A stretch of 51,755 nt of DNA, from positions 1 through 51,755 of IMG/VR virus record IMGVR_UViG_3300042434_000548; one strand, 5' to 3'. The position numbers and the translations under genes were made by a program. Under the pieces are notes generated by a model. It did no database searches. It had not been told where the DNA came from and was given only the letters and a program-made list of their open reading frames with translations. The stretch's first letter is position 1. Every line of letters starts with the position of its first letter. The DNA is from a virus (lineage: Duplodnaviria > Caudoviricetes). Shown piece after piece: positions 36,834-50,399 of this stretch.

Positions 36834-36862
36834 AGTTAAGCAGCCTGACCCTGCCCTGTCAA
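36834..36862 (-). promoter_or_regulatory. Promoter with operator, copy 5
   Basis: TTGACA-ggGCAGGGTCAGGCTGC-TTAACT-N6-ATG. Confidence 0.85.
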
Positions 36863-36918
36863 CTCCAAACCTAGGAAATCCCGAAAGTTTCCGAAAGGTC
36901 TGGAATGTCCGATTTCTG

Positions 36919-38315: not shown

Positions 38316-38738
38316 TTACTCCCCATGCAACTGACGGAAATGAAACAGGTCTGCCAAATCAGGTTCGTTCGCCGCAATCAGACGCGCGTAACGGCTAGTG
38401 AAATCGTTACTGAGCGCGAACGGTTCCCCTGTCCGGGTTTGGATACTGTACTGCCAGCGCAGAATCTCAAAGAGCATCTTAATACTGCACTTGTCGTTAC
38501 CTGCCTGTTTCCATTCCCGCGCGAGACTCACGAGAGCGTCGTAAACCTGCGGGTTATCGTGATGGAACTTGACGAAACGCACTTCGATTTCGTCTGGCAG
38601 CAGCGCCATTTGCCGCGAATCGTAACGCGGTCTAGCCGCTGACGGGTCAAGCGCACACACCTGACACGACTCACCCGAACACGCGTGGATTTTCTCTAGG
38701 CGTTCTATGTCGTCCCCGAATAATTCCCAGAGACTCAT
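38316..38738 (-). CDS. Hypothetical conserved phage protein
   Basis: FHHDNPQVY...SIKMLFEILRW...LSNDFTSRYAR...F.FR. Confidence 0.75.
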   Translation of the reverse strand: MSLWELFGDDIERLEKIHACSGESCQVCALDPSAARPRYDSRQMALLPDEIEVRFVKFHHDNPQVYDALVSLAREWKQAGNDKCSIKMLFEILRWQYSIQTRTGEPFALSNDFTSRYARLIAANEPDLADLFHFRQLHGE

Positions 38739-39397
38739 TACCGTTCCCCTCCGGGGCAGCCGATCTCCCCTGTCGCGTCATAGAACTTGCAGTAGTCCCG
38801 GCAGAAACGCACCGGACGTTCACCCTCAGGTGGCGTATCCAAGGTTTCCAGTTCGCGCAGCCACTCAATTCCCTGCAATGCGAGTTCAGGATCGTATGGT
38901 TCGCTGTGAATCTGTACATGGTTTTCGTTGCCGTCGCGCGGAATCCCCACAAGCGTTACCGTTTCCACGATTTTGTCGTTGCATGTGAGCAGATATGCGT
39001 ACAACTGCACTTGCATACGCTGCTGATCGCTAGGCCACGGGTGCGACTTGCTCGCGAGTTTACTTTTCGTGGTCGTTTTCCAGTCGATCACTTCATGTGC
39101 GGCGGTGTCGTACACATCCACATGACCCGTTAGCCCATCTGCGCTGACTTCCATTTCCGTGATGTAACGCTCACCGAAAGGGTCAAGCCGCGTGACCCGC
39201 TTTTCCAACTCTGTGTGTATCGCTGTGCCCATCCACGCAGCCATTTCCAGCGTGTCATGGTTCGTTGTACGCGTCCCGAACAGGCGATGCCACACCTGAG
39301 CGCGGCACCCGCCGATTTCGCTAGGGCCGACAGCCTTTTGCACAGACCGCGCACTCTGCTTGTTCGACATTAACGAGAGTACGAAATCCTTATCCAT
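38738..39397 (-). CDS. Cas4-like PD-(D/E)xK exonuclease
   Basis: GPSEIGGC, GTAIH, GHVD, IDWKT, QVQLY, FCRDYCKFY...C. Confidence 0.88.
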   Translation of the reverse strand: MDKDFVLSLMSNKQSARSVQKAVGPSEIGGCRAQVWHRLFGTRTTNHDTLEMAAWMGTAIHTELEKRVTRLDPFGERYITEMEVSADGLTGHVDVYDTAAHEVIDWKTTTKSKLASKSHPWPSDQQRMQVQLYAYLLTCNDKIVETVTLVGIPRDGNENHVQIHSEPYDPELALQGIEWLRELETLDTPPEGERPVRFCRDYCKFYDATGEIGCPGGER

Positions 39398-39524
39398 GCT
39401 TCGCCTCATCCCGCGCAGCGTCAGCATCATGCAACCACGATTCGATAACGTCGTCGTGGTCGATTGTTACGCCCTCATCTGCGAACTGCTGTAGCCGCTC
39501 CATGCGTTCGACGTAGCCCCTCAT
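39390..39524 (-). CDS. Small hypothetical (44 aa; not in track)
   Basis: MRGYVERMERLQQF...; coupled at both ends. Confidence 0.5.
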   Translation of the reverse strand: MRGYVERMERLQQFADEGVTIDHDDVIESWLHDADAARDEAKHG

Positions 39525-39610
39525 CGCTTGTCCTTCCTGTCGCCCGTCATGCCTAGCCAATAGCCAAGCGCAAACACAAGCCCGATTAGTAAAAGGTCAA
39601 TCACGTTCAT
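39521..39610 (-). CDS. 29-aa membrane peptide (not in track)
   Basis: MNVIDLLLIGLVFALGYWLGMTGDRKDKR. Confidence 0.55.
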   Translation of the reverse strand: MNVIDLLLIGLVFALGYWLGMTGDRKDKR

Positions 39611-39615
39611 GTGCG

Positions 39616-39987
39616 TTACCCCATATCCATCGCGGCACGAACCGCTGTGCCGACACTACGCGCAATGTCGATCTGTGTCCGCAGACGTTGCGCGTTAGCG
39701 CGCGCAGCCCGGACGATAGCCTCACTCGTGTTCAGGCGCGTGAGTTCGCTAGCGCACTCTACTGTCGATTCGTCGTCCACTTCCTGAACCGTGATCTTGC
39801 GTCCCGCTTCCAGAGCGCGAGCGCGAATCGTGAGCCTAGCCCTCGCGGAGTTAATTTCGTACAGCGACTTAGCCGACGCGTATTCCATTTCCGCATGGTC
39901 TAGTTGCTTGTGCGATTCGTCGTACTCTTGCGAGAGCGCGACAAGTTTCGCTTCCACATCTGCCGGGGTGTAAAGGCGACTCATCAC
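39616..39987 (-). CDS. Coiled-coil protein in the recombination module
   Basis: Heptad helices; coupled to Sak. Confidence 0.75.
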   Translation of the reverse strand: MMSRLYTPADVEAKLVALSQEYDESHKQLDHAEMEYASAKSLYEINSARARLTIRARALEAGRKITVQEVDDESTVECASELTRLNTSEAIVRAARANAQRLRTQIDIARSVGTAVRAAMDMG

Positions 39988-40679
39988 GCCTCCGCGTTCT
40001 CACGCAGTTGCGCCAGACGGTCAAGCAGGCGGCTGCGGGGAGTCTCATCCTTACCGTCCCACAGCATCGAATCCAATTCACCCATTTCGTTGAGCCGATC
40101 ATAGATCGCTTTAAGGTCCGACTCGTTATCCACGGCTACCGCATCACCCAACAGGGCGAACACGACAGCAGGTGGCGGCGTGAACTGTTCCACCGCGACC
40201 GCGTAACCCTCAGGCGGGTTCAGAGTATGCCCCACAACATCATTACGATTACCCCCGTCGTACAGGGACAGCCCGAACTGTGTGCCCAGGTTAATCGCGG
40301 CACGCTTGAGCGCGTCCGACTCTGCCGTCTTGACCGCCATATCGTGCGCTTCCCCACGCTGCGGGAGAGTCGCTGAACCCACAGCGGCTTCCGTATATGT
40401 CGTGTCTCCTAGGAAATCTTCATCTACATGTAGGCGTAGACGCATCACTACTTTGTAGCCGACATTCCAACGCCCCTTGTCGTCCTGATCTTCGAACGCG
40501 AGTTCAGCGGAGAGAACGTCAGCGGACCATCCACCGAAACCGAACACCCGGATAAGGTGCGCTTTAACGTCCCACGCTTCCAGATAGGACAGGCTCATGC
40601 CGCCCTGCTGACGGGACGAAACGCGATGCTTCGCGAGCGGCTTAAGCAGCGTCGCGTATTGCTGCGGAGTGAGTTTCAT
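39984..40679 (-). CDS. sak: Rad52/Rad22-family single-strand annealing protein (Sak)
   Basis: LSYLEAWDV...LIRVFGFGGWS, KTAESDALKRAA.NLG..FG.SLYD. Confidence 0.92.
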   Translation of the reverse strand: MKLTPQQYATLLKPLAKHRVSSRQQGGMSLSYLEAWDVKAHLIRVFGFGGWSADVLSAELAFEDQDDKGRWNVGYKVVMRLRLHVDEDFLGDTTYTEAAVGSATLPQRGEAHDMAVKTAESDALKRAAINLGTQFGLSLYDGGNRNDVVGHTLNPPEGYAVAVEQFTPPPAVVFALLGDAVAVDNESDLKAIYDRLNEMGELDSMLWDGKDETPRSRLLDRLAQLRENAEA

Positions 40680-40888: not shown

Positions 40889-41296
40889 CTAACGGAACTT
40901 GTTTACCCAATCGGTGATCTCATGCGGGTGCATGAAACTTGCGGTGTGTGTGACATTCCAAAAGTTGTCATGCTTGTCGTACTCGCAGTATTCGGCATGG
41001 AACTTCCCGCCACGCACGAACACTTCCACAAGAGTCCGATCACTCGTGGCGACTTCGACACTATGAACGGTGGGCTTCGCAGCAGATGTTGACCAGTCCC
41101 ATTTGATGCCCTCTGCGTTCATGTGCGCGAGCGCGGGAGCGAACTCGCCCCATTGCCGGATGCTGTCCTCAACGCTAGTCATAAACCTATCGGGGAAGCA
41201 GGCGGGGCAGATGCACTCAGGCTCACAGAACCGTACGCCGTGACAGTCCGGGCAATCGACCCCAACAAGCGCAAGCGGGTTAATGGTGGCGGTCAT
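40889..41296 (-). CDS. Hypothetical Cys-rich protein (island D)
   Basis: CPDC...CICPAC; coupled. Confidence 0.7.
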   Translation of the reverse strand: MTATINPLALVGVDCPDCHGVRFCEPECICPACFPDRFMTSVEDSIRQWGEFAPALAHMNAEGIKWDWSTSAAKPTVHSVEVATSDRTLVEVFVRGGKFHAEYCEYDKHDNFWNVTHTASFMHPHEITDWVNKFR

Positions 41297-41634
41297 GCGT
41301 CCTCCCTGTCGTGGCGCGGTTCGAACTCGCTGTCTGGCGCGGGGGTGGCGTCGTCGCGAACGATGTTCGACTCACACAGGTTGCAGCCGAACCAGTACGC
41401 GGGATAGACGGCAAGGTCACTTTTCGCGATGCCGCACCACTTGCAGCAGCCGTCCTCATCCCACACGGGCGCTGCGCTGTCGGCGGCGATGAACTCCCGC
41501 GCTGCTTCCTCTGTGGGGAAGTCGCGGAGCGTGGACGGTCCCGCGCCCCACATATTCACCTGAACGGCGTAGATGGTGGGCGGCTGTCCTTCGCCCGTCC
41601 ACGGGTTCGGCTCTGTGACTACTGTGTAGGTCAT
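41293..41634 (-). CDS. Hypothetical protein
   Basis: FPTEEAAREF, CKWC...CNLC; ATGA coupling. Confidence 0.7.
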   Translation of the reverse strand: MTYTVVTEPNPWTGEGQPPTIYAVQVNMWGAGPSTLRDFPTEEAAREFIAADSAAPVWDEDGCCKWCGIAKSDLAVYPAYWFGCNLCESNIVRDDATPAPDSEFEPRHDREDA

Positions 41635-41834
41635 CGGGACCACGCTCCCTTCATGGCGGCGGTGCGCTCTGCGTCAAGCGCGAGGGCGGCGCGAGCGTCT
41701 GCCGTGTTGCCCTTGACCTTGACCCATCCGGCAGGCATCGCGCCTGCCTGCATCATCTTGCGGGATGCGACGTTGCTGTGCGGTCCCTGGTAGATCACCT
41801 GATAGGTGTCGCGGTGAATGACGGTGTAGATCAT
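41631..41834 (-). CDS. Hypothetical protein
   Basis: Coupled ORF. Confidence 0.7.
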   Translation of the reverse strand: MIYTVIHRDTYQVIYQGPHSNVASRKMMQAGAMPAGWVKVKGNTADARAALALDAERTAAMKGAWSR

Positions 41835-42004
41835 CGCGCAGCCGCCTCTGCCTGATCGCGGGTGTCGTACTCTCCGATGAAAAGCCCGTCAGCATCGAAC
41901 ACATGCCAGTTGCCGTCCATGCCGGGACGCTTGCAGGGCATAATCATCCAACCTGCGTGGGTAATGCCCACAAGCCCGGTCTGTGCCCAGTTGACTATTG
42001 CCAT
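41831..42004 (-). CDS. Hypothetical protein (start MAIVNW)
   Basis: GAGGGG RBS; first gene after promoter copy 6. Confidence 0.7.
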   Translation of the reverse strand: MAIVNWAQTGLVGITHAGWMIMPCKRPGMDGNWHVFDADGLFIGEYDTRDQAEAAAR

Positions 42005-42047
42005 TGTCTTTCCCCTCTGTCGTGCCCCGTGGGGCGCTGATACACCT

Positions 42048-42076
42048 AGTGAAGCAGGGTCGCGCTGCATAGTCAA
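42048..42076 (-). promoter_or_regulatory. Promoter with operator, copy 6
   Basis: TTGACT-atGCAGCGCGACCCTGC-TTCACT. Confidence 0.75.
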
Positions 42077-42107
42077 GGCTAAACTGCCTAATTCCGTAAT
42101 GTCTGTT

Positions 42108-42209
42108 TCAGGCGAGTCCGTCCACCCACCCCGCGACCCCCATACCCGCAAGGATCAGCACGAGGAACGCCACCGCTGCGACTGTCTCGCCGCGCCTAGT
42201 CAACTTCAT
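42108..42209 (-). CDS. 33-aa membrane peptide downstream of the ribozyme
   Basis: MKLTRRGETVAAVAFLVLILAGMGVAGWVDGLA; AAAGGGG RBS. Confidence 0.7.
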   Translation of the reverse strand: MKLTRRGETVAAVAFLVLILAGMGVAGWVDGLA

Positions 42210-42223
42210 TTCTGTTACCCCTT

Positions 42224-42283
42224 TCGCCTGTCTCGTCAGGCACGGGAGGCGATTCCCGTGCGACCCCATCACGGGGTTTCGAC
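42224..42283 (-). ncRNA. Type II hammerhead ribozyme with pseudoknot
   Basis: Minus strand GUC-GAAA-CCCC(GUGAU)GGGG-UC^-GCACGGGA(AUCGCC)UCCCGUGC-CUGACGA-GAC-A-GGCGA: complete catalytic core, three stems, loop I/3' tail pseudoknot. Confidence 0.88.
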
Positions 42284-42286
42284 TCG

Positions 42287-42637
42287 TTACACCATCCGTT
42301 CGCGGTTCGCGTACGGGTTGTCTAGCCGGAACTCTTCCGGCACCCGCTTGATGCACTCAGCGCCGACCGGGAACCATCCCATATCGCCGCCGTTGTGCGG
42401 GTAGGTCGCATAATCGTCGGGGTGGACGATCAAGCCACCGCCCCCGGAAACGTACACACCATCTGAGTTCCCATTACGGCTAGCGTTACGACCGCAGAAA
42501 ATGCACTCGCGTCCGTCTGTGCTGCCGCCTTTACGCCCGTTGTTAATGCGGTTCCAGTAGGTGTCACCCCACATGACGCCGCTGGCATCTACGATGCGCG
42601 CGCCATGCAGGATTTCGGCTGTGAGTTTCCGATTCAT
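42287..42637 (-). CDS. Zn-binding hypothetical, paralog of 15660-15995
   Basis: CIFCGR...GGGGLIVHPDD...MGWFPVGAEC...VP. Confidence 0.75.
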   Translation of the reverse strand: MNRKLTAEILHGARIVDASGVMWGDTYWNRINNGRKGGSTDGRECIFCGRNASRNGNSDGVYVSGGGGLIVHPDDYATYPHNGGDMGWFPVGAECIKRVPEEFRLDNPYANRERMV

Positions 42638-42927
42638 CGGGCGATCCTGACTCGCGAAACGGGGATGCCGTGGGCTGCTGCGTACTCGCGCTTCGCCGCG
42701 TTAATGGCTGCGCGGCGCTCACGCTGATCCAACTTCGCCATGAGATAGGCGATGACGTTAGCGAACGGCTGCGCGTCCTCGCGGTCCTGAGCGCCGTAGA
42801 GCGCAAGCCATTGGATAGCGGTCTGGAAGTCGCCGTCTGACGGCTTGTGCGCGTCCATTCCGTCTGCGAGGAACGCGTCTACGGTGTCGTCGTCGGCGCT
42901 GATCCGCTCTTCCCATTCGATCTGCAT
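42634..42927 (-). CDS. Hypothetical protein
   Basis: AAGGGGG RBS; first gene after promoter copy 7. Confidence 0.75.
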   Translation of the reverse strand: MQIEWEERISADDDTVDAFLADGMDAHKPSDGDFQTAIQWLALYGAQDREDAQPFANVIAYLMAKLDQRERRAAINAAKREYAAAHGIPVSRVRIAR

Positions 42928-42969
42928 TGCTGCCCCCTTACTTATGCCCCGTTGTGGGGCGTTAGAGCA

Positions 42970-42998
42970 AGTGAAGCAGGGTCAGGCTGCATTGTCAA
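42970..42998 (-). promoter_or_regulatory. Promoter with operator, copy 7
   Basis: TTGACA-atGCAGCCTGACCCTGC-TTCACT. Confidence 0.8.
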
Positions 42999-43054
42999 GC
43001 GGTAACGCAGGGCAATTTCAGGATCGGACATTCCGGGACACCCCATTTCGGGGC

Positions 43055-43083
43055 TTGACAGCGCAGCGTGAGGCTGCTTAGAT
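43055..43083 (+). promoter_or_regulatory. Promoter with operator, copy 8
   Basis: TTGACA-gcGCAGCGTGAGGCTGC-TTAGAT. Confidence 0.8.
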
Positions 43084-43131
43084 GGGGTTATGTGAGGCTG
43101 CAAGGCGCAGCCGGGAAGGGGGCCACCGCCC

Positions 43132-43368
43132 ATGTTCACCACTACCACTACCCGCCCGGTCAAGTTCCACGGTTGGACGCTCCCGAAGGGCGCTACCGTA
43201 ACGCTCACGCAGGTTCGCGTCGATAAGTACTCGCCTGTTGAGCAATACACGACCGCGAGCGCCACAAGCGCCGACGCGCCGCACGCAATCGCAATCCCCA
43301 CGGACGCGCTCGCCGCAACCTACACAGAACTCGCCACACTCCCGTGGCACACGGAGCATCTTTACTAG
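43132..43368 (+). CDS. Hypothetical protein
   Basis: AAGGGGG RBS; lies between promoter 8 and a terminator. Confidence 0.7.
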   Translation: MFTTTTTRPVKFHGWTLPKGATVTLTQVRVDKYSPVEQYTTASATSADAPHAIAIPTDALAATYTELATLPWHTEHLY

Positions 43369-43384
43369 ATGCCACAAGCGAAAG

Positions 43385-43428
43385 AGCCCCGGCTATGCGA
43401 CCTCCGCGACTCGCAACCGGGGCTTTTT
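43385..43428 (+). terminator. Intrinsic terminator
   Basis: AGCCCCGG...CCGGGGCT followed by TTTT. Confidence 0.75.
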
Positions 43429-43530
43429 CCTGCGATAGAATGAAGTCAGCAACGTGTCCAAAGTGACCCCGCCCTAACGTGACTCGCGTGGTCCCTAGGT
43501 GCCGGGGTTGCCGCGCGCCTAGGGAGCGGA

Positions 43531-43743
43531 ATGTACCGGGTACTCATCGGCATTGACTACGCAGGAAAGCGCGTGGAGCCGGGTACTGTCGTGGACGATC
43601 TTCCCCCTAAGTCTGTGTCGTGGCTTGTTGCTCAGGGCGTTATCGAAAAGGCAGATGTTTCCGTTGTTGCCGATGCTGCGCCTAAGCCTGTTGAGCCTAT
43701 TAAGCCGCGTGAGCCTCAGTCTCCTAGCAAGGGAGGCAAGTAA
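43531..43743 (+). CDS. Small protein preceding the tail tube genes
   Basis: YRVLIGIDY..KRVEPG.VVDDLP..SV.WL..QG.IE. Confidence 0.75.
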   Translation: MYRVLIGIDYAGKRVEPGTVVDDLPPKSVSWLVAQGVIEKADVSVVADAAPKPVEPIKPREPQSPSKGGK

Positions 43744-44463
43744 ATGCCTACTTTCCGTCACGGTAAGCGCACGGTTGTGCTGCTGAATGGCACGGATATG
43801 TCGCCGTTCCTGAACGAAGCGACGCAGACGCAAGAGATCGAAACTGCGGAGACAACCACGTTCGCAGACGACGATAAGACGTACATCACCGGACTAGGCG
43901 ACGGCACGATCTCTACTAGCGGACTGTTCGACGGCACCGCTAACGCATCGAATGATGTTCTGTCCGGCGCTATCGGTCAGGAAGATAACACTTTCACGGT
44001 GCTTCCTGAGGGCGCTACAGCCGGGTCACGATCCATCATCGCTAACGGTCAGTTGACTTCATACGAGGTTTCGTCCCCGGTTGGGGATGTTGTCGCTATT
44101 TCTGCGGAGGTTCAGGCAGACGGCGGCTTGTTCTCAGGGCTCGCGCTGAATGGCCTGCTTAACACGGGCACTTCCGCGTCACTCTCTGGGATTAACGACG
44201 GTGCTGCTACGTCAGGCGGTGGCTTGTTTAACCTTCACGTTACCGATAACACGCGTGATGGTGCCGCCACGGTTAAGGTTCAGCACTCTGCCGACAACGC
44301 AACGTGGGTTGACCTCGTGACGTTTACGGCTGTTTCGGCGTCGTCCACCACGGGCGAGAGCATCACTAGCACGGGCACGGTTAATCAGTATCTCCGTGCA
44401 GCACATTCCCTCGCCGGATCATCCGGCTCTATCACCTATCACGTTTCGGCAGCAAGGAGATAA
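43744..44463 (+). CDS. Tail tube protein paralog with C-terminal beta-sandwich extension
   Basis: MPTFRHGK...ETAETTTF...KTYITGLGD...TSYEVSSPVGDVV plus about 110 extra aa. Confidence 0.8.
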   Translation: MPTFRHGKRTVVLLNGTDMSPFLNEATQTQEIETAETTTFADDDKTYITGLGDGTISTSGLFDGTANASNDVLSGAIGQEDNTFTVLPEGATAGSRSIIANGQLTSYEVSSPVGDVVAISAEVQADGGLFSGLALNGLLNTGTSASLSGINDGAATSGGGLFNLHVTDNTRDGAATVKVQHSADNATWVDLVTFTAVSASSTTGESITSTGTVNQYLRAAHSLAGSSGSITYHVSAARR

Positions 44464-45500: not shown

Positions 45501-48500
45501 GTGGCTGTCGCTAATGTTGTCGCTAAGTTCGAAGCGGACATTAGTGATGTTCAGGCGAAAATGGCGATGCTGCGCAGCAGTTTCGCGCAAGCAGGAGATT
45601 CCACAGAGGCGCTATCGCAGCGCATGGTGATGCTTGGCAACACGGTTTCGAATGTTGGCAAGCAGATGACGCTTGGTATTACTGCCCCGCTTGCTGCGCT
45701 AGGCGTCATTGCTATTAAGACGCAAAAAGATTTCGAAGTATCCATGAATACGCTTGGCGTAGTTTCGGGTGCTGCTGCTGCTGAAGTGCAGGCACTTAGC
45801 GATTACGCAATGAAAATGGGCGCGGATACTGTTTATTCTGCTGGCGAAGCCGCTAACGCAATGGTGGATTTGGCTAAGTCGGGATTCACGCCTGCGCAGA
45901 TTTCCGGTGGCGGTCTTGCTGCGACTATGGCACTCGCGGCGACAGAGGGCATGGCGCTGACCGATGCCGCTGTAACCGTAGCAAACGCTATGGCTACATT
46001 CGGTCTGGAAGCGAACCAGGCAAGCAGCATTGCCGATGCGCTCGCGGGTGGCGCTAATGCGTCTACTGCATCTGTCGAATCGCTTACGTCTGCTCTGCGT
46101 CAGGTTGGTCCCGGTGCTGTCAATGCCGGGATGTCGTTGCAGGAAACTGTAGCGACGCTTGCTGCGTTCGATGCTGCTGGTATTAAGGGTTCGGATGCTG
46201 GTACGTCGCTTAAGACAATGCTCATGCGGCTTGTGCCGACTTCTCAGGAAGCCGCTGATTCTATGCGGCAATTGGGTATCGACTTCACTAATGCTGACGG
46301 ATCATTTAAGAGCATCACCGAGATCGCGCAGATTCTCCAAAATCGTTTGGGTGGTCTGTCAGAGGCGCAGAGGGTGCAGGCGCTTACGACTATTTTCGGG
46401 GCCGATGCGACACGCGCCGCGACTGTTCTAATGACTGAAGGCGCGTCAGGTCTGCAAACCTATATCGACGGCACTAATCAGTTGGGTGCAGCACAGGAAC
46501 TTGCTAATGCTCGCATGAAGGGTACTGCGGGGACTCTTGAGCAACTGAAGGGCTCTCTGGAAACTGCTGCGCTAGTTATTGGCGAGAATCTGGCACCTAC
46601 TTTCCAGGTGCTAGCGAATCTCGTTAAGTCTGTGACAGACGCGTTCCTTACTTTGCCTAAGCCGTTGCAGCAGATCACGGTTGCTGCTGGTGCGGTTGCC
46701 GCTGCTATGGGACCGATCCTATGGGTCGGCGGGAAAATCCTTGTCCTTATGGCGAGCATGTCGAAGGCGTTCGTTGCCGCGCGTGTGTCGATCACTTTAG
46801 CGTTTAGGCAGATTGCTGCTGGCGCTAAGGCTACTCAGATTCAGATTCAGACTTCCATGATCGCTGCGCGTACTAGCATGGGCGCTTTAGTTGCGGGTGC
46901 GCGTGCCGCTGGCGCTGGTTTCGTTGCCACGTTCCGCACGATGACGGGCGCTATCCGTGGATTCATGGCGGCATTGGGTCCGGTAGGTATTGCGATTATT
47001 GGTGCGTCTGTCGCCTATGAAGTGTTTGTCGGTGCCCAGCAGGAAGCAGAGGACAAGGTTAATAGCCTTACCGATGCGATGAAGGAACAGAACGCGGTCA
47101 TGGGTGAGGCTGTCGCTCTGCAACTGGCGCAGGATTTGCAGGAACTTGCCTACGGTTTCGCTGAGAACACAAAGTTTGTTGACGATCTCGCGGCGCTAGG
47201 TTTGACGCTGGATGAAGTCATCATGGCTTTGATGCAGGGTGGCGACGCTATGCAGCAGTTGACGACGCGCGTTAACGAGGCGGCTGCTGGTAACGATAAG
47301 TTGCGTATGGCGGCAGGTAATGTTATCGGCACGCTGGCGATGGAGAACGAGTCTGTCAATCAGGCGCGAGCGCAGTACGAGTCTTACAACACCGCGAAGG
47401 CGCTCGCTGCCCAAGTTACAGGTCAAGTTGCAGACGCTACTACTGGCCTGACCTCCGCTACTGTGTCAGCCGCTATCGCTGCTGGTGAAGCGATAGCGCC
47501 AACGCAGGGTCTTACCTCATCCATGACGGATCTCGGAACGGCTGTTGGTGAAACAGCAACAGAGATCGACATCATGCGCCAGGAATACAACGAGTGGATC
47601 TCCGTCACCGGACAGATTGCTGCGGTGGATACCGCTGCTGCGTCCATCGATAATCTCGGTGCTGCTTCGGTTGAATTCGGCACGAACCTGATGGGGCAGA
47701 CGCCGAAGGCGCGTGACTTCCGTGGGGAAGTTGTTAAGGCGTTTGAGGATTCTGCTGCTGCTGCCGCGTCGCTATCGGATGACCTGCCGACACAGCGTGC
47801 GATCTTCACCGGGGAACTTATTAAGATCGTTGCTGCCCTGCGCGCTAGTGGCGTCAAGCCTGCCGATATCGAAGCGTTCCTAGGCGCAATGGAAGGTCTG
47901 CCTGCGAGCGTGTCGGACATTATGCGTGGCGCGGCTAAGGCTGTTGGAGACACGGACTTTAAGACGGAAATAGAAAAAGCGTTTAAGAAGTCTGTCAAGG
48001 CGGGTGCGCCGATGACGGCTGACACAATGGCAGAACTGGCTAAGGGCGCTAGCAAGTCGGCTAAGGAAGAATTGGGTCTAACACTTGAGCCGGAACTGGC
48101 GTCGATTATTAAGAGCGGCACAACTGCCCTACGCCCAACCGCATTTAACAATGGACAACAAGTAGGAACGTCTATCGGCTCGGGAACCGCTAACGGTATT
48201 TTGAGTAGTAGCCCTACTGTCGTTGCCGCTATCGAACGCGTAATCGAAAATGCGCATACTGCTGCAAAGGCGAAAGCAGAATCTACGTCGCCGTCTAAGT
48301 TGTTCGCACGATTCGGCGACGATATCGGTGCTGGTATCGCGGTGGGTGTGGCGCGTTCTGGAAGCCGGGTTAATGCTGTGGCGCGCCAACTTGTGCAGAA
48401 CCTTATGCGCGCTGTTAATGCTGCGCTTGCCCCTGCGATGGGTCCGGTGCAGTCCGCAATCGCTGACGTATTCGGCAACATCCCATCGGTGCGTGAGGCG

Positions 48501-50399
48501 GAACGTGCTTTGCAGGATGCGTCGTGGGCTGTCGCTGACGCGCGCGATGCCGTAGTGGATGCCGAGAAGCGGCTAGAGGAAGCGCGCAAGGAAGGCAACG
48601 CGCGCGAGATCGCTAGGGCAGAGCGTGATCTAGCACGGGCACGCCGTGACGTTACTGACGCTACCTCTGCTTTGCGTGACGCACAGGCAGGGCTAGACCT
48701 CGCGAAGTATATTGCGCAGAACAAGCAGGCTGTTAAGGCGCTTGAGCGTTTGGGTAAGCAGTTCGATTACATCGTCGCGAAGATGGAGGAAGTGTCCGGG
48801 GCGCTTACCGAATTGCAGGACTTGACCGCGAAGCCGTTTGGTCAGTCGTCGCAGGTTGCTCGCATGTTCGGTAGCGATACCGATATCGACGGCGTTATCA
48901 GCGGCTACATGCAGTTGCGTGATGTAGTTACTGAGGCGTTCGGGGTGTTGACTGATCCTAAGATTGTCGGCGCTGCTGCTGCTAACGCTAACCGTGATCA
49001 GATGAACGCGACGTTGGGGCAGTTGGAAACACTTACCGCTGAAGCGGTGCAGTTGCGTGAGAGGTATCAGGCGAACCTTGAGCGCATCACGAAACTGGAA
49101 GAGGATTACCAAAAGCAAGTTGAGTCGATTAACGCACGGTACGACGGGTTGGAGGCGGCGGGTAAGGCAAATCTTGCCGCTTTGGAAGAGCGTCTACGCG
49201 GGGTTACCGCTGAGTACGAACGCGAGAACAGCGCCCTGCTGAGTCTCGTTAACGCACGGGATCAGTTCCTCACCCGTTTGGGCGACAGCACCCGCAACTT
49301 CATTAACAACCTGTCGTTCCCGCCCCCAACTACGCGCACGGTGCGTGAGGCGCGCAGGCTTGCTAACGGAATCCTTGTCACGATAGACCGTGAAATTACT
49401 GAGGGCGGCGATTCATCTAGCATCCGTACCGCTCTTGAGCAAAGACTGAACGAATTGCGGTCGTTCTCCGCGAACATTAAGTCCCTGATTCAGCGTGGGC
49501 TTGATCCTGCGCTGGTTCAGGACTTTGTTTCTGCTGGCGTGTCGGGTGCGGGGGATGCGGTTGCGCAACTGGCTAAGGGCACAGATGAGGAACTGCGCGC
49601 GGTTAACGCGGTTCAGTCTGCGTTGGGGCAAGAGATCGCAGATTTCGGTGCTTACGCTGAACAGCAATGGTTCGCTGCGGGGATCGCTCAGCAGGAAGCG
49701 ATTGTTGCTCCGTTGCAGGCGCAAAAGGATGCGCTTGCTCAGTCTGTCGCGGATGCTAAGGCTGCGTTGGATCAGTTGGCAGCGCAACGTCAGGCGGCGT
49801 TGGATAAGGCGCGTTCCACGTTTGAGGCTGAGAAAGCAAAGATCGAAGCGGATAATGCGGCGCTGATTGTTCGCATGGATCGAATTGCGGCGCAGATCGA
49901 AGGAATCATTGCCACGCTTGCCGCATCATTGCCACCCCGAACGGTGCAGGCAGGGCAGGACGCTATGCAGGCGTTGCTTGACGGGTTCCGCAGGAAGTAT
50001 CCGCAGATTGCGCGTGACCTTGGCAAACTTATGGATGCTCTCGCGGCGTCGCTGAACCGCACGATCACGCTCACGGTTCGCACGGTGTATGAGGCAGCCG
50101 GGAGTATGCCTAGGCGCGCGATGGGTGGACCCGTTCAGGCACGCACCGCGTACCTCGTGGGCGAGCGTGGACCGGAAGTGTTCGTGCCTTACGGCAACGG
50201 CAACATTATTCCTAATCACAACCTAGGTTCTGTGCCGTCTATGGGTGCGCGTGGCGTGAGCGGCGCTGGCGCGGTCATTAACATTCAGGTGAACGCGGGT
50301 ATGGGTGCTGACGGTGGGGAGATTGGGCGTCAGGTTGTGGATTCGTTGCGCCAGTACGAACGCCGTAACGGTCCTATCCCGATAAAGGTGGCGGGATGA
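45501..50399 (+). CDS. Tape measure protein
   Basis: 1632 aa, Ala-rich; TP901-like core (GKQMTLGITAPL, GIKGSDAGTSLK, LTTIFGADA); C-terminal GGPV....YLVGERGPE. Confidence 0.95.
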   Translation: MAVANVVAKFEADISDVQAKMAMLRSSFAQAGDSTEALSQRMVMLGNTVSNVGKQMTLGITAPLAALGVIAIKTQKDFEVSMNTLGVVSGAAAAEVQALSDYAMKMGADTVYSAGEAANAMVDLAKSGFTPAQISGGGLAATMALAATEGMALTDAAVTVANAMATFGLEANQASSIADALAGGANASTASVESLTSALRQVGPGAVNAGMSLQETVATLAAFDAAGIKGSDAGTSLKTMLMRLVPTSQEAADSMRQLGIDFTNADGSFKSITEIAQILQNRLGGLSEAQRVQALTTIFGADATRAATVLMTEGASGLQTYIDGTNQLGAAQELANARMKGTAGTLEQLKGSLETAALVIGENLAPTFQVLANLVKSVTDAFLTLPKPLQQITVAAGAVAAAMGPILWVGGKILVLMASMSKAFVAARVSITLAFRQIAAGAKATQIQIQTSMIAARTSMGALVAGARAAGAGFVATFRTMTGAIRGFMAALGPVGIAIIGASVAYEVFVGAQQEAEDKVNSLTDAMKEQNAVMGEAVALQLAQDLQELAYGFAENTKFVDDLAALGLTLDEVIMALMQGGDAMQQLTTRVNEAAAGNDKLRMAAGNVIGTLAMENESVNQARAQYESYNTAKALAAQVTGQVADATTGLTSATVSAAIAAGEAIAPTQGLTSSMTDLGTAVGETATEIDIMRQEYNEWISVTGQIAAVDTAAASIDNLGAASVEFGTNLMGQTPKARDFRGEVVKAFEDSAAAAASLSDDLPTQRAIFTGELIKIVAALRASGVKPADIEAFLGAMEGLPASVSDIMRGAAKAVGDTDFKTEIEKAFKKSVKAGAPMTADTMAELAKGASKSAKEELGLTLEPELASIIKSGTTALRPTAFNNGQQVGTSIGSGTANGILSSSPTVVAAIERVIENAHTAAKAKAESTSPSKLFARFGDDIGAGIAVGVARSGSRVNAVARQLVQNLMRAVNAALAPAMGPVQSAIADVFGNIPSVREAERALQDASWAVADARDAVVDAEKRLEEARKEGNAREIARAERDLARARRDVTDATSALRDAQAGLDLAKYIAQNKQAVKALERLGKQFDYIVAKMEEVSGALTELQDLTAKPFGQSSQVARMFGSDTDIDGVISGYMQLRDVVTEAFGVLTDPKIVGAAAANANRDQMNATLGQLETLTAEAVQLRERYQANLERITKLEEDYQKQVESINARYDGLEAAGKANLAALEERLRGVTAEYERENSALLSLVNARDQFLTRLGDSTRNFINNLSFPPPTTRTVREARRLANGILVTIDREITEGGDSSSIRTALEQRLNELRSFSANIKSLIQRGLDPALVQDFVSAGVSGAGDAVAQLAKGTDEELRAVNAVQSALGQEIADFGAYAEQQWFAAGIAQQEAIVAPLQAQKDALAQSVADAKAALDQLAAQRQAALDKARSTFEAEKAKIEADNAALIVRMDRIAAQIEGIIATLAASLPPRTVQAGQDAMQALLDGFRRKYPQIARDLGKLMDALAASLNRTITLTVRTVYEAAGSMPRRAMGGPVQARTAYLVGERGPEVFVPYGNGNIIPNHNLGSVPSMGARGVSGAGAVINIQVNAGMGADGGEIGRQVVDSLRQYERRNGPIPIKVAG

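Follow-up and report, generated by a model that had tools for sequence, protein, structure and literature searches.

A type II hammerhead ribozyme among the small early genes of a lake-water phage, with a likely use in processing of the early mRNA

The phage genome and the locus

The window, by which the whole stretch of DNA under analysis is meant, is an entire IMG/VR virus record (51,755 bases) that carries direct terminal repeats and has an estimated completeness of 100%. The stretch occurs in 20 sequencing runs, all of them of DNA, with 17 from lake water, one from freshwater and two labelled metagenome only. The major tail protein (43744-44463) was assigned to phrog_9522 (E 4.9e-58) and shows 30-37% identity to its counterparts in Arthrobacter and Microbacterium phages; the long ORF 45501-50399 is taken, from its size and position alone, for a putative tape-measure protein. 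The kinship of the tail protein together with the lake and freshwater origin of the runs gives a hint that the host could be a freshwater actinobacterium. Nothing matched when the region 41000-44000 was compared by megablast with 50,697 phage records, and a tblastn search with the 534-aa ORF 588-2192 returned a single partial match, of 13% coverage, to a Pontimonas phage.

A leftward block of small early genes includes those for an HTH protein, a Rad52-family annealing protein and a PD-(D/E)XK nuclease. The recombination module spans 38738-40679 on the minus strand, where the Rad52/22 annealing protein (PF04098, E 3.2e-26) is followed two genes later by the PD-(D/E)XK/Cas4-like exonuclease. 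The earlier note had placed the ribozyme inside an operon of small genes, and its neighbours are indeed leftward early genes on the minus strand. The features of the locus, with the fourth copy of the promoter-like repeat, are the following:

43054..43083, plus strand, divergent rightward promoter-like repeat CTTGACA-N17-TTAGAT (repeat search)
42970..42999, minus strand, promoter-like repeat CTTGACA-N17-TTCACT ahead of the 97-aa gene (repeat search; putative promoter)
42634..42927, minus strand, 97-aa gene, first of the leftward unit (ORF list; family unassigned)
42287..42637, minus strand, upstream 116-aa gene (ORF list; family unassigned)
42222..42284, minus strand, type II hammerhead, whole Rfam match (RF02276)
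42218..42221, minus strand, Shine-Dalgarno-like GGGG, 8 nt ahead of the ATG (sequence; putative function)
42108..42209, minus strand, 33-aa ORF MKLTRRGETVAAVAFLVLILAGMGVAGWVDGLA with its ATG at 42209, predicted single-pass membrane peptide (ORF list)
42048..42077, minus strand, second promoter-like repeat, immediately behind the 33-aa ORF (repeat search)
36834..36863, minus strand, fourth copy of the promoter-like repeat (repeat search)

The features around the ribozyme are tightly packed. The TAA stop codon of the 116-aa gene occupies 42289-42287 and is followed by 3 nt, CGA, before the hammerhead, and on the other side the Shine-Dalgarno GGGG begins 2 nt past the pseudoknot strand of the ribozyme. 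The 30-nt promoter-like repeat, CTTGACA-N17-TTMRMT, is present in four copies in the window and in none of 100 shuffles. A sigma-70 scan of 41500-43600 returned no promoter-like site, the repeats included, and the assignment of the latter as promoters is therefore putative. A scan for terminators over the same region found two weak sites only, and no terminator-like site was found in 42100-42300 or between the ribozyme and the next gene. On this arrangement the hammerhead would lie about 715 nt into the first leftward transcription unit, which would comprise the 97-aa gene, the 116-aa gene, the hammerhead and the 33-aa ORF.

The 33-aa peptide is the same in the window and in two related genomes described below, L002 and L152. 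At the nucleotide level four distinct sense-codon differences (codons 6, 15, 20 and 32) were observed, all of them synonymous third-position changes, which amounts to modest evidence that the ORF is a gene; its stop codon is TAA in L002 versus TGA. No match to the peptide was found by tblastn against the phage records at E<=10, and no function could be assigned from PHROGs, Pfam or PADLOC to the 97-aa, 116-aa and 33-aa products or to the proteins encoded upstream of the ribozyme in L002 and L152; the sole match of such a cassette protein, that of gene A in L152, was to phrog_37844, which is itself a family of unknown function.

Other observations concern the wider surroundings. The two repeat copies around 43000 face each other and resemble a divergent early control region, and the variable region of L002 has more copies, in both orientations. 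A G+C-rich hairpin followed by TTTTT (43385-43430, plus strand), located behind the 78-aa rightward ORF 43132-43368, resembles a rightward intrinsic terminator ahead of the structural genes, although it is absent from the output of the terminator scan. A segment of 175 nt, 41827-42001, which holds most of a 57-aa ORF (42004-41831), is missing from L002 and from a 21-kb contig of run X16, and its loss fuses a promoter-proximal leader to the next gene.

Identity and anatomy of the ribozyme

When both strands of the window were searched against 4227 Rfam families, a match to RF02276 (Hammerhead_II) was obtained on the minus strand, from 42284 to 42222, covering the full model (positions 1-66 of 66) with 40.4 bits against a gathering score of 37 and E = 7.1e-5; a search with this single family gave E 1.7e-8. 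The margin above the gathering cut-off is just 3.4 bits. Neither at the gathering threshold nor at E<=1 did the Rfam search return a second match in the 51,755-base window, and RF02276 had zero matches in 14 well-known control genomes. This is the Infernal/Rfam check that the earlier note had asked for. The parts of the ribozyme, all on the minus strand and in the order of the RNA, are the following:

42281..42283, minus strand, stem II 5' strand GUC, positions 11.3-11.1, pairing with GAC 42232-42230
42277..42280, minus strand, core G12 A13 A14 A15.1 (GAAA), read from the sequence and aligned to the invariant GAAA of the model
42263..42277, minus strand, stem III hairpin A-CCCC/GGGG-U with loop GUGAU (RNAfold, 5 pairs, -7.4 kcal/mol)
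42261..42262, minus strand, predicted scissile bond, 3' of C17 (42262) and 5' of G1.1 (42261) (Rfam alignment, GUC then stem I)
42240..42261, minus strand, stem I hairpin of 8 bp with loop AUCGCC (RNAfold, 8 pairs, -14.2 kcal/mol)
42248..42252, minus strand, pseudoknot strand UCGCC in loop I, complementary to 42228-42224 (duplex about -6.9 kcal/mol)
42233..42239, minus strand, core C3 U4 G5 A6 N7 G8 A9 (CUGACGA), N7 being C (sequence and model alignment)
42230..42232, minus strand, stem II 3' strand GAC, positions 10.1-10.3 (sequence)
42224..42228, minus strand, pseudoknot strand GGCGA in the 3' tail, 1 nt (A) beyond stem II

The invariant core is complete, with C3 U4 G5 A6 N7 G8 A9 as CUGACGA at 42239-42233, G12 A13 A14 within GAAA at 42280-42277, the A15.1-U16.1 pair as A42277-U42263 and, at H17, which must not be G, C42262. 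The topology is that of a type II hammerhead, since stems I (8 bp) and III (5 bp) are closed by loops and stem II (3 bp) is open; the strands of stem I, GCACGGGA (42261-42254) and UCCCGUGC (42247-42240), form eight perfect pairs. The tertiary contact consists of a 5-bp pseudoknot between UCGCC in loop I and GGCGA just 3' of stem II, at an offset of 1 nt, where at least 4 bp were looked for. Placing the cut 3' of C17 follows the accepted hammerhead numbering, as does the numbering of the core positions.

The locus is confirmed as a genuine type II hammerhead ribozyme and as a member of RF02276. The same class had been proposed in the earlier note, and the proposal is borne out by the Rfam match, the core, the topology and the pseudoknot; the sequence is exactly as that note described it, with a full core, perfect stems I and III and an open stem II of 3 bp, the complementarity that it saw between loop I and the downstream GGCGA is there, at a length typical of the family, and the cut that it predicted between 42262 and 42261 coincides with the family's site in the Rfam alignment, itself a prediction. 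It had the locus right as well, but its borders (42224-42283) were one to two bases too narrow.

Folding of the RNA

The secondary structure of the hammerhead was computed at -24.3 kcal/mol, to which the pseudoknot duplex adds about -6.9 kcal/mol. For the 76-nt region ViennaRNA does not give the hammerhead as the nested structure of lowest energy; the best nested fold reaches -29.5 kcal/mol and pairs the CCCC of stem III with the Shine-Dalgarno GGGG. The modelled energies of the hammerhead with its pseudoknot and of this nested fold are on a par. In growing prefixes of the RNA up to 42240, stems III and I made up the minimum-energy fold in every one. The z-score of the fold against shuffles, -1.51, is weak, as expected for a pseudoknotted ribozyme, and gives no support by itself.

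Close relatives and the variable upstream cassette

The close relatives of the window are two viral contigs, L002 (also L147 and L162) and L152 (also L161), with flanks 95-98% identical; a query with the 135-aa protein recovered the same two and no others, and the comparative depth at the locus is therefore thin. Their ribozymes score 40.0 bits (L002) and 39.8 bits (L152) with RF02276, and the three genomes differ only in loop III, which is GUGAU in the window, GCGA in L002 and GUAA in L152. In near-identical contigs from two further runs there were no substitutions within 42222-42284, and the flanks differ. L152 carries a second hammerhead 275 nt upstream of the first, which at 36.3 bits lies 0.7 bits below the cut-off; its core is that of the first copy except that N7 is U instead of C, and the pseudoknot strands are the same. 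The five core-proximal pairs of stem I read C-G, A-U, G-C, C-G, A-U in the second copy and G-C, C-G, A-U, C-G, G-C in the first, so that four of the five have changed in both strands and still pair, and the fifth is unaltered. These pair counts come from anchored parsing by script. The core is retained at both related loci, the second copy of L152 included (N7 aside), and in this small sample the changes fall in loop III or are compensatory in stem I; the earlier note had asked for covariation in related contigs.

The sequence upstream of the ribozyme behaves differently. Homology between the window and L002, and between the window and L152, does not extend past 42284, where the Rfam match begins; the upstream genes differ in all three genomes, whereas the ribozyme and the 33-aa ORF are constant. 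The cassette of the window consists of the 97-aa and 116-aa genes. In L002 this block is inverted and stands behind a rightward copy of the promoter-like repeat, and the ORF before the ribozyme is a different one, of 148 aa as listed and of 130 aa from the chosen start. In L152 the second hammerhead separates two other genes, of 101 aa and 70 aa, and the 70-aa ORF ends with a TAA inside loop III of the first hammerhead. From comparison of these sequences, the slot between the putative divergent promoters and the hammerhead is hypervariable. The arrangement in the window is not an assembly accident, because it recurs over 42008-43100 in a collinear 21-kb contig of another run. Homologues of the 116-aa gene, with 52-95% identity, were found at five viral loci, and near those of 52-69% identity (L003-L006) no hammerhead was detected within 3 kb at E<=1.

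Several details of these regions were noted in addition. Relative to 42284-43051 of the window, segment 1761-3354 of L002, a genome of 95-97% identity to the window, has about 940 nt of other sequence inserted. In L152 (1278-1293, minus strand) the 70-aa ORF runs across stem II, GAAA and the 5' strand of stem III, its TAA (in loop III, GUAA) being 6 nt ahead of the predicted cut site, and a ribosome completing this gene would occupy the ribozyme. Contigs with unrelated flanks from runs X18, X19 and X20 match just the stretch from stem I to the core (42227-42267, about 40 nt, with 7 differences), and a 5.6-kb contig contains two of these matches at a distance of 1.1 kb. Near-identical contigs often end at the ribozyme, as though the assembly graph forked there.

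Association with a small membrane peptide

A pattern scan was made for ATG-K-L-T-[KR]-[KR]-G at 10-40 nt behind a hammerhead core, with a well-formed hammerhead as the filter. The pattern was found at 23 viral loci, 15 of which pass the filter, namely the two relatives, 12 loci of a separate lineage (L139-type) and L138. The separate lineage encodes a 50-aa peptide starting MKLTKRGKRVRAVAILLG; a thirteenth locus of it, L144, is cut by a contig end and fails the filter. L138 has a 31-aa peptide and a hammerhead of 35.0 bits. In bacterial and archaeal genomes the same scan gave 46 hits, about the number expected by chance from a hand estimate, and none of the 46 had a hammerhead. The 33-aa and 50-aa peptides have 13 of 21 N-terminal residues in common, seven of these being imposed by the search. 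In the L139-type lineage one downstream sequence, 78-100% identical between loci, is found behind two upstream contexts that are unrelated to each other (44-49% identity).

Type II hammerheads across phages

The setting of the window ribozyme was compared with that of other phage hammerheads through a sequence pattern that describes type II hammerheads whose stem II is GUC/GAC and that was found in at least 131 stretches of viral contigs (L007-L137). Hammerheads were called well-formed when stem III had at least 3 bp and stem I at least 4 bp, which held for 134 of the 149 unique hits among the matches listed, versus 0.5% of controls with shuffled interiors. Where loop I had at least 5 nt, a pseudoknot of at least 4 bp with the hammerhead's own tail was possible in 73/88 of the matches listed (21% with permuted tails) and one of at least 5 bp in 57/88 (7% with permuted tails). 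Among the matches listed these 73 comprise 46 distinct pseudoknot strands, and in 70 of them the 3' strand begins 0-1 nt past stem II; the pseudoknot of the window, with 5 bp and an offset of 1, is typical of the matches listed.

The position between genes is equally regular. Counting open frames of at least 50 codons, 131 of the 134 well-formed hammerheads among the matches listed have an upstream stop codon within 200 nt, at a median of 1 nt (IQR -1 to 4), with 117 within 20 nt. A Shine-Dalgarno-like motif with a start codon follows within 200 nt downstream in 116/134 of the matches listed, the start lying at a median of 25 nt from stem II (IQR 21-31), and the downstream ORFs, with a median of 71 aa, are of many kinds. 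With the stop at a median of 1 nt and the start some 25 nt past stem II, the ribozyme nearly fills the intergenic gap; the corresponding distances in the window are 3 nt and 20 nt, against the medians of 1 and 25 among the matches listed.

Phage hammerheads were further grouped into 18 clusters of similar members. Four of these show more upstream than downstream contexts, two the reverse and 12 an equal number, the last usually with both flanks unrelated and ribozymes at least 85% alike. A rule that the hammerhead always travels with its downstream gene is not upheld by these counts, with only 4 of 18 clusters in its favour, and it is safer to state in general that phage hammerheads sit at mosaic junctions.

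Two structural features of the set were also seen. Among the matches listed, the stop codon of the upstream gene abuts or overlaps the first base of stem II in phage type II hammerheads. In 46 of the 134 well-formed hammerheads among the matches listed, stem I is about 6-10 bp long, usually 7, its loop spans just 3-4 nt, usually 3, and a pseudoknot is not possible; the tails of such pseudoknot-less hammerheads often start with CAAC or CACA among the matches listed.

Known systems

Natural type II hammerheads were described by Perreault et al. in 2011 (PMC3088659); the pseudoknot between loop I and the 3' tail is needed for fast cleavage, which is slowed more than 100-fold when it is broken. 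The same study describes type II hammerheads as common near phage and prophage genes, where they cleave within long transcripts, and reports arrangements of several copies that flank genes of changing identity; the processing of long phage transcripts into shorter mRNAs was the role proposed there. The purpose of bacterial and phage hammerheads is still called undefined in a 2019 review (PMC6765202), and literature searches, made for the most part through listings, showed no published test of the function of a phage hammerhead. Desulfovibrio vulgaris has three predicted type II hammerheads close to phage-like genes, and a cyPhyRNA-seq study showed their cleavage both in vivo and in vitro (PMC8782182); they belong to the same family and have the same context as the ribozyme of the window, but theirs are chromosomal and assayed, whereas that of the window is phage-borne and predicted.

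The ribozyme of the window shares with RF02276 the core (CUGANGA, GAAA, H17), the closed stems I and III, the short open stem II and the pseudoknot, and does not differ from the family in structure; its stem I (8 bp, 6-nt loop) with UCGCC/GGCGA is one of many combinations found in the family. Its location between small phage genes and the two gene-flanking copies in one relative also agree with the family as the 2011 study presents it (PMC3088659). The sequence itself is new and comes from an uncultured phage of lake water; it belongs to a known ribozyme family and lies in a typical phage setting, and since the family has thousands of known members the find is an ordinary one.

Proposed role of the ribozyme and alternatives

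The likely use of this type II hammerhead, in what appears to be the first leftward early unit, is the intercistronic processing of the early mRNA, a reading to which we give a probability of roughly 0.8. Transcription would start about 715 nt upstream, at 42999-42970, and proceed through the 97-aa and 116-aa genes; stems III and I would fold as the RNA emerges, after which the 3-bp stem II would close and loop I would dock on the 3' tail through the 5-bp pseudoknot, leading to self-cleavage between C42262 and G42261. The upstream two-gene mRNA would keep a 2',3'-cyclic phosphate behind the stem III hairpin, and the downstream RNA would have its 5'-OH end right at the stem I hairpin of 8 bp, with the Shine-Dalgarno sequence and the 33-aa gene 40-52 nt beyond the new 5' end, followed by the remaining early operon. 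The downstream message would in this way gain a fixed, structured 5' end, and its fate would become independent of the upstream accessory cassette. Cleavage in vivo and the effects of the new ends on stability or translation, as well as the promoter assignments, are what we infer from sequence and predicted structure.

The splitting of a polycistronic mRNA had been predicted in the earlier note and agrees with the role already proposed for the family in the 2011 work (PMC3088659). Two further suggestions of the note fared less well. A message for the 33-aa peptide alone is not what the locus predicts, as no terminator-like site follows the ORF and the element that stands behind it is the promoter-like repeat at 42077-42048. 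Control of peptide translation by ribozyme folding found no specific support, given that the closeness of the Shine-Dalgarno sequence is general and that stems III and I form first.

The last suggestion corresponds to a regulatory switch, in which the balance between the hammerhead fold and a fold hiding the Shine-Dalgarno sequence would set translation of the 33-aa peptide. The nested fold in which the CCCC of stem III pairs with the GGGG would fit such a device, since cleavage would free the Shine-Dalgarno strand, and so would the 2 nt between the latter and the pseudoknot strand; however, stems III and I come first in all prefixes, the alternative fold is no better than the hammerhead with its pseudoknot, and the second copy of L152 precedes a different gene, of 70 aa. 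The proximity of the Shine-Dalgarno sequence to the pseudoknot is a trait of the whole family, found before many different downstream genes, and therefore shows no special link to the 33-aa peptide, so that the switch is regarded as improbable. Somewhat better placed, though still unlikely, is a service to the upstream genes, for which stem III and the cyclic phosphate would provide a hairpin-closed 3' end as a substitute for a terminator, with the downstream end as a by-product. The hammerhead lies 3 nt past the upstream stop (median 1 nt among the 134 matches listed), no terminator-like site occurs in 42100-42300, and the upstream context is the more constant one in 2 of the 18 clusters. Against it, the upstream genes have been replaced in 3 of 3 genomes with the ribozyme and the downstream ORF kept, and the L139-type lineage shows the same, with upstream sequences at 44-49% and downstream ones at 78-100% identity.

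Another view takes the ribozyme DNA of about 60 nt mainly as a recombination linker or spreading repeat at cassette borders, with cleavage secondary or neutral. Homology breaks exactly at the 5' edge of the hammerhead in all three pairwise comparisons, a gene of L152 is flanked by two copies sharing the 5' 13 nt and the 3' stretch from core to pseudoknot, both flanks are unrelated in 12 of the 18 clusters with ribozymes at least 85% alike, and contigs with unrelated flanks in three lake metagenomes match only 42227-42265/7. Yet all catalytic nucleotides are kept, stem changes are compensatory and the pseudoknot covaries (46 strands in 73 among the matches listed), and the upstream gene in any case ends where the homology breaks; the odds on this view are slim. 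Least probable is an inactive look-alike or a decayed copy that has lost cleavage. The score is 3.4 bits above the gathering cut-off, the second copy of L152 falls 0.7 bits below it, and some predicted hammerheads were inactive in the 2011 study (PMC3088659), but the core has zero deviations, the pseudoknot has the length and offset usual for the family, and the changes among the three genomes are confined to loop III.

Beyond mRNA processing itself, the ribozyme may serve as a natural insulator against context and as a cassette border, placed where the hypervariable accessory slot has its fixed edge, its DNA supplying homology for swaps; this wider reading is tentative, and we hold it to be possible at clearly less than even odds. 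If it were true, the conserved early operon, which starts with the MKLT[KR]RG peptide, would receive the same 5' end whatever the cassette. It is favoured by the three genomes with three upstream cassettes and a break exactly at the ribozyme edge, by the separate hammerhead lineage with the same pattern before a similar peptide, and by the occurrence of hammerhead and peptide together in 15/23 viral hits versus 0/46 bacterial or archaeal ones, whereas the downstream side being more constant in just 4 of 18 clusters speaks against its generality.

The likeness to RiboJ, whose original paper reportedly dates from 2012, would be an analogy of function only, with a hammerhead before the ribosome-binding site, the upstream part removed and a constant 5' end. 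The precondition for such use, an upstream part that varies between relatives, is seen in this phage. RiboJ is an engineered hammerhead with an added 23-nt hairpin, whereas the ribozyme of the window is a natural type II hammerhead with a pseudoknot and no added hairpin, and is not a RiboJ member. RiboJ insulators are hammerhead-based parts that normalise the 5'-UTR (PMC7536230).

For the question of what bacterial and phage hammerheads are for, which the 2019 review leaves open (PMC6765202), the locus is a clean test case. It offers a complete genome with a single copy in a defined early operon, and two relatives in which the cassette has been replaced or inverted, one of them with a second copy. 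With these natural variants, and with the tight packing of stop codon, hammerhead, Shine-Dalgarno sequence and start codon in the 134 matches listed, the insulator or processing idea is directly testable with reporters.

The MKLTKRG start of the peptide was also met at loci with no hammerhead upstream (L140, L146, L156, L157; L148, L160). The carriers there are small membrane peptides and a protein of 187 aa, the tail of which looks lysozyme-like by eye, and the N-terminal motif is therefore wider than its association with the ribozyme.
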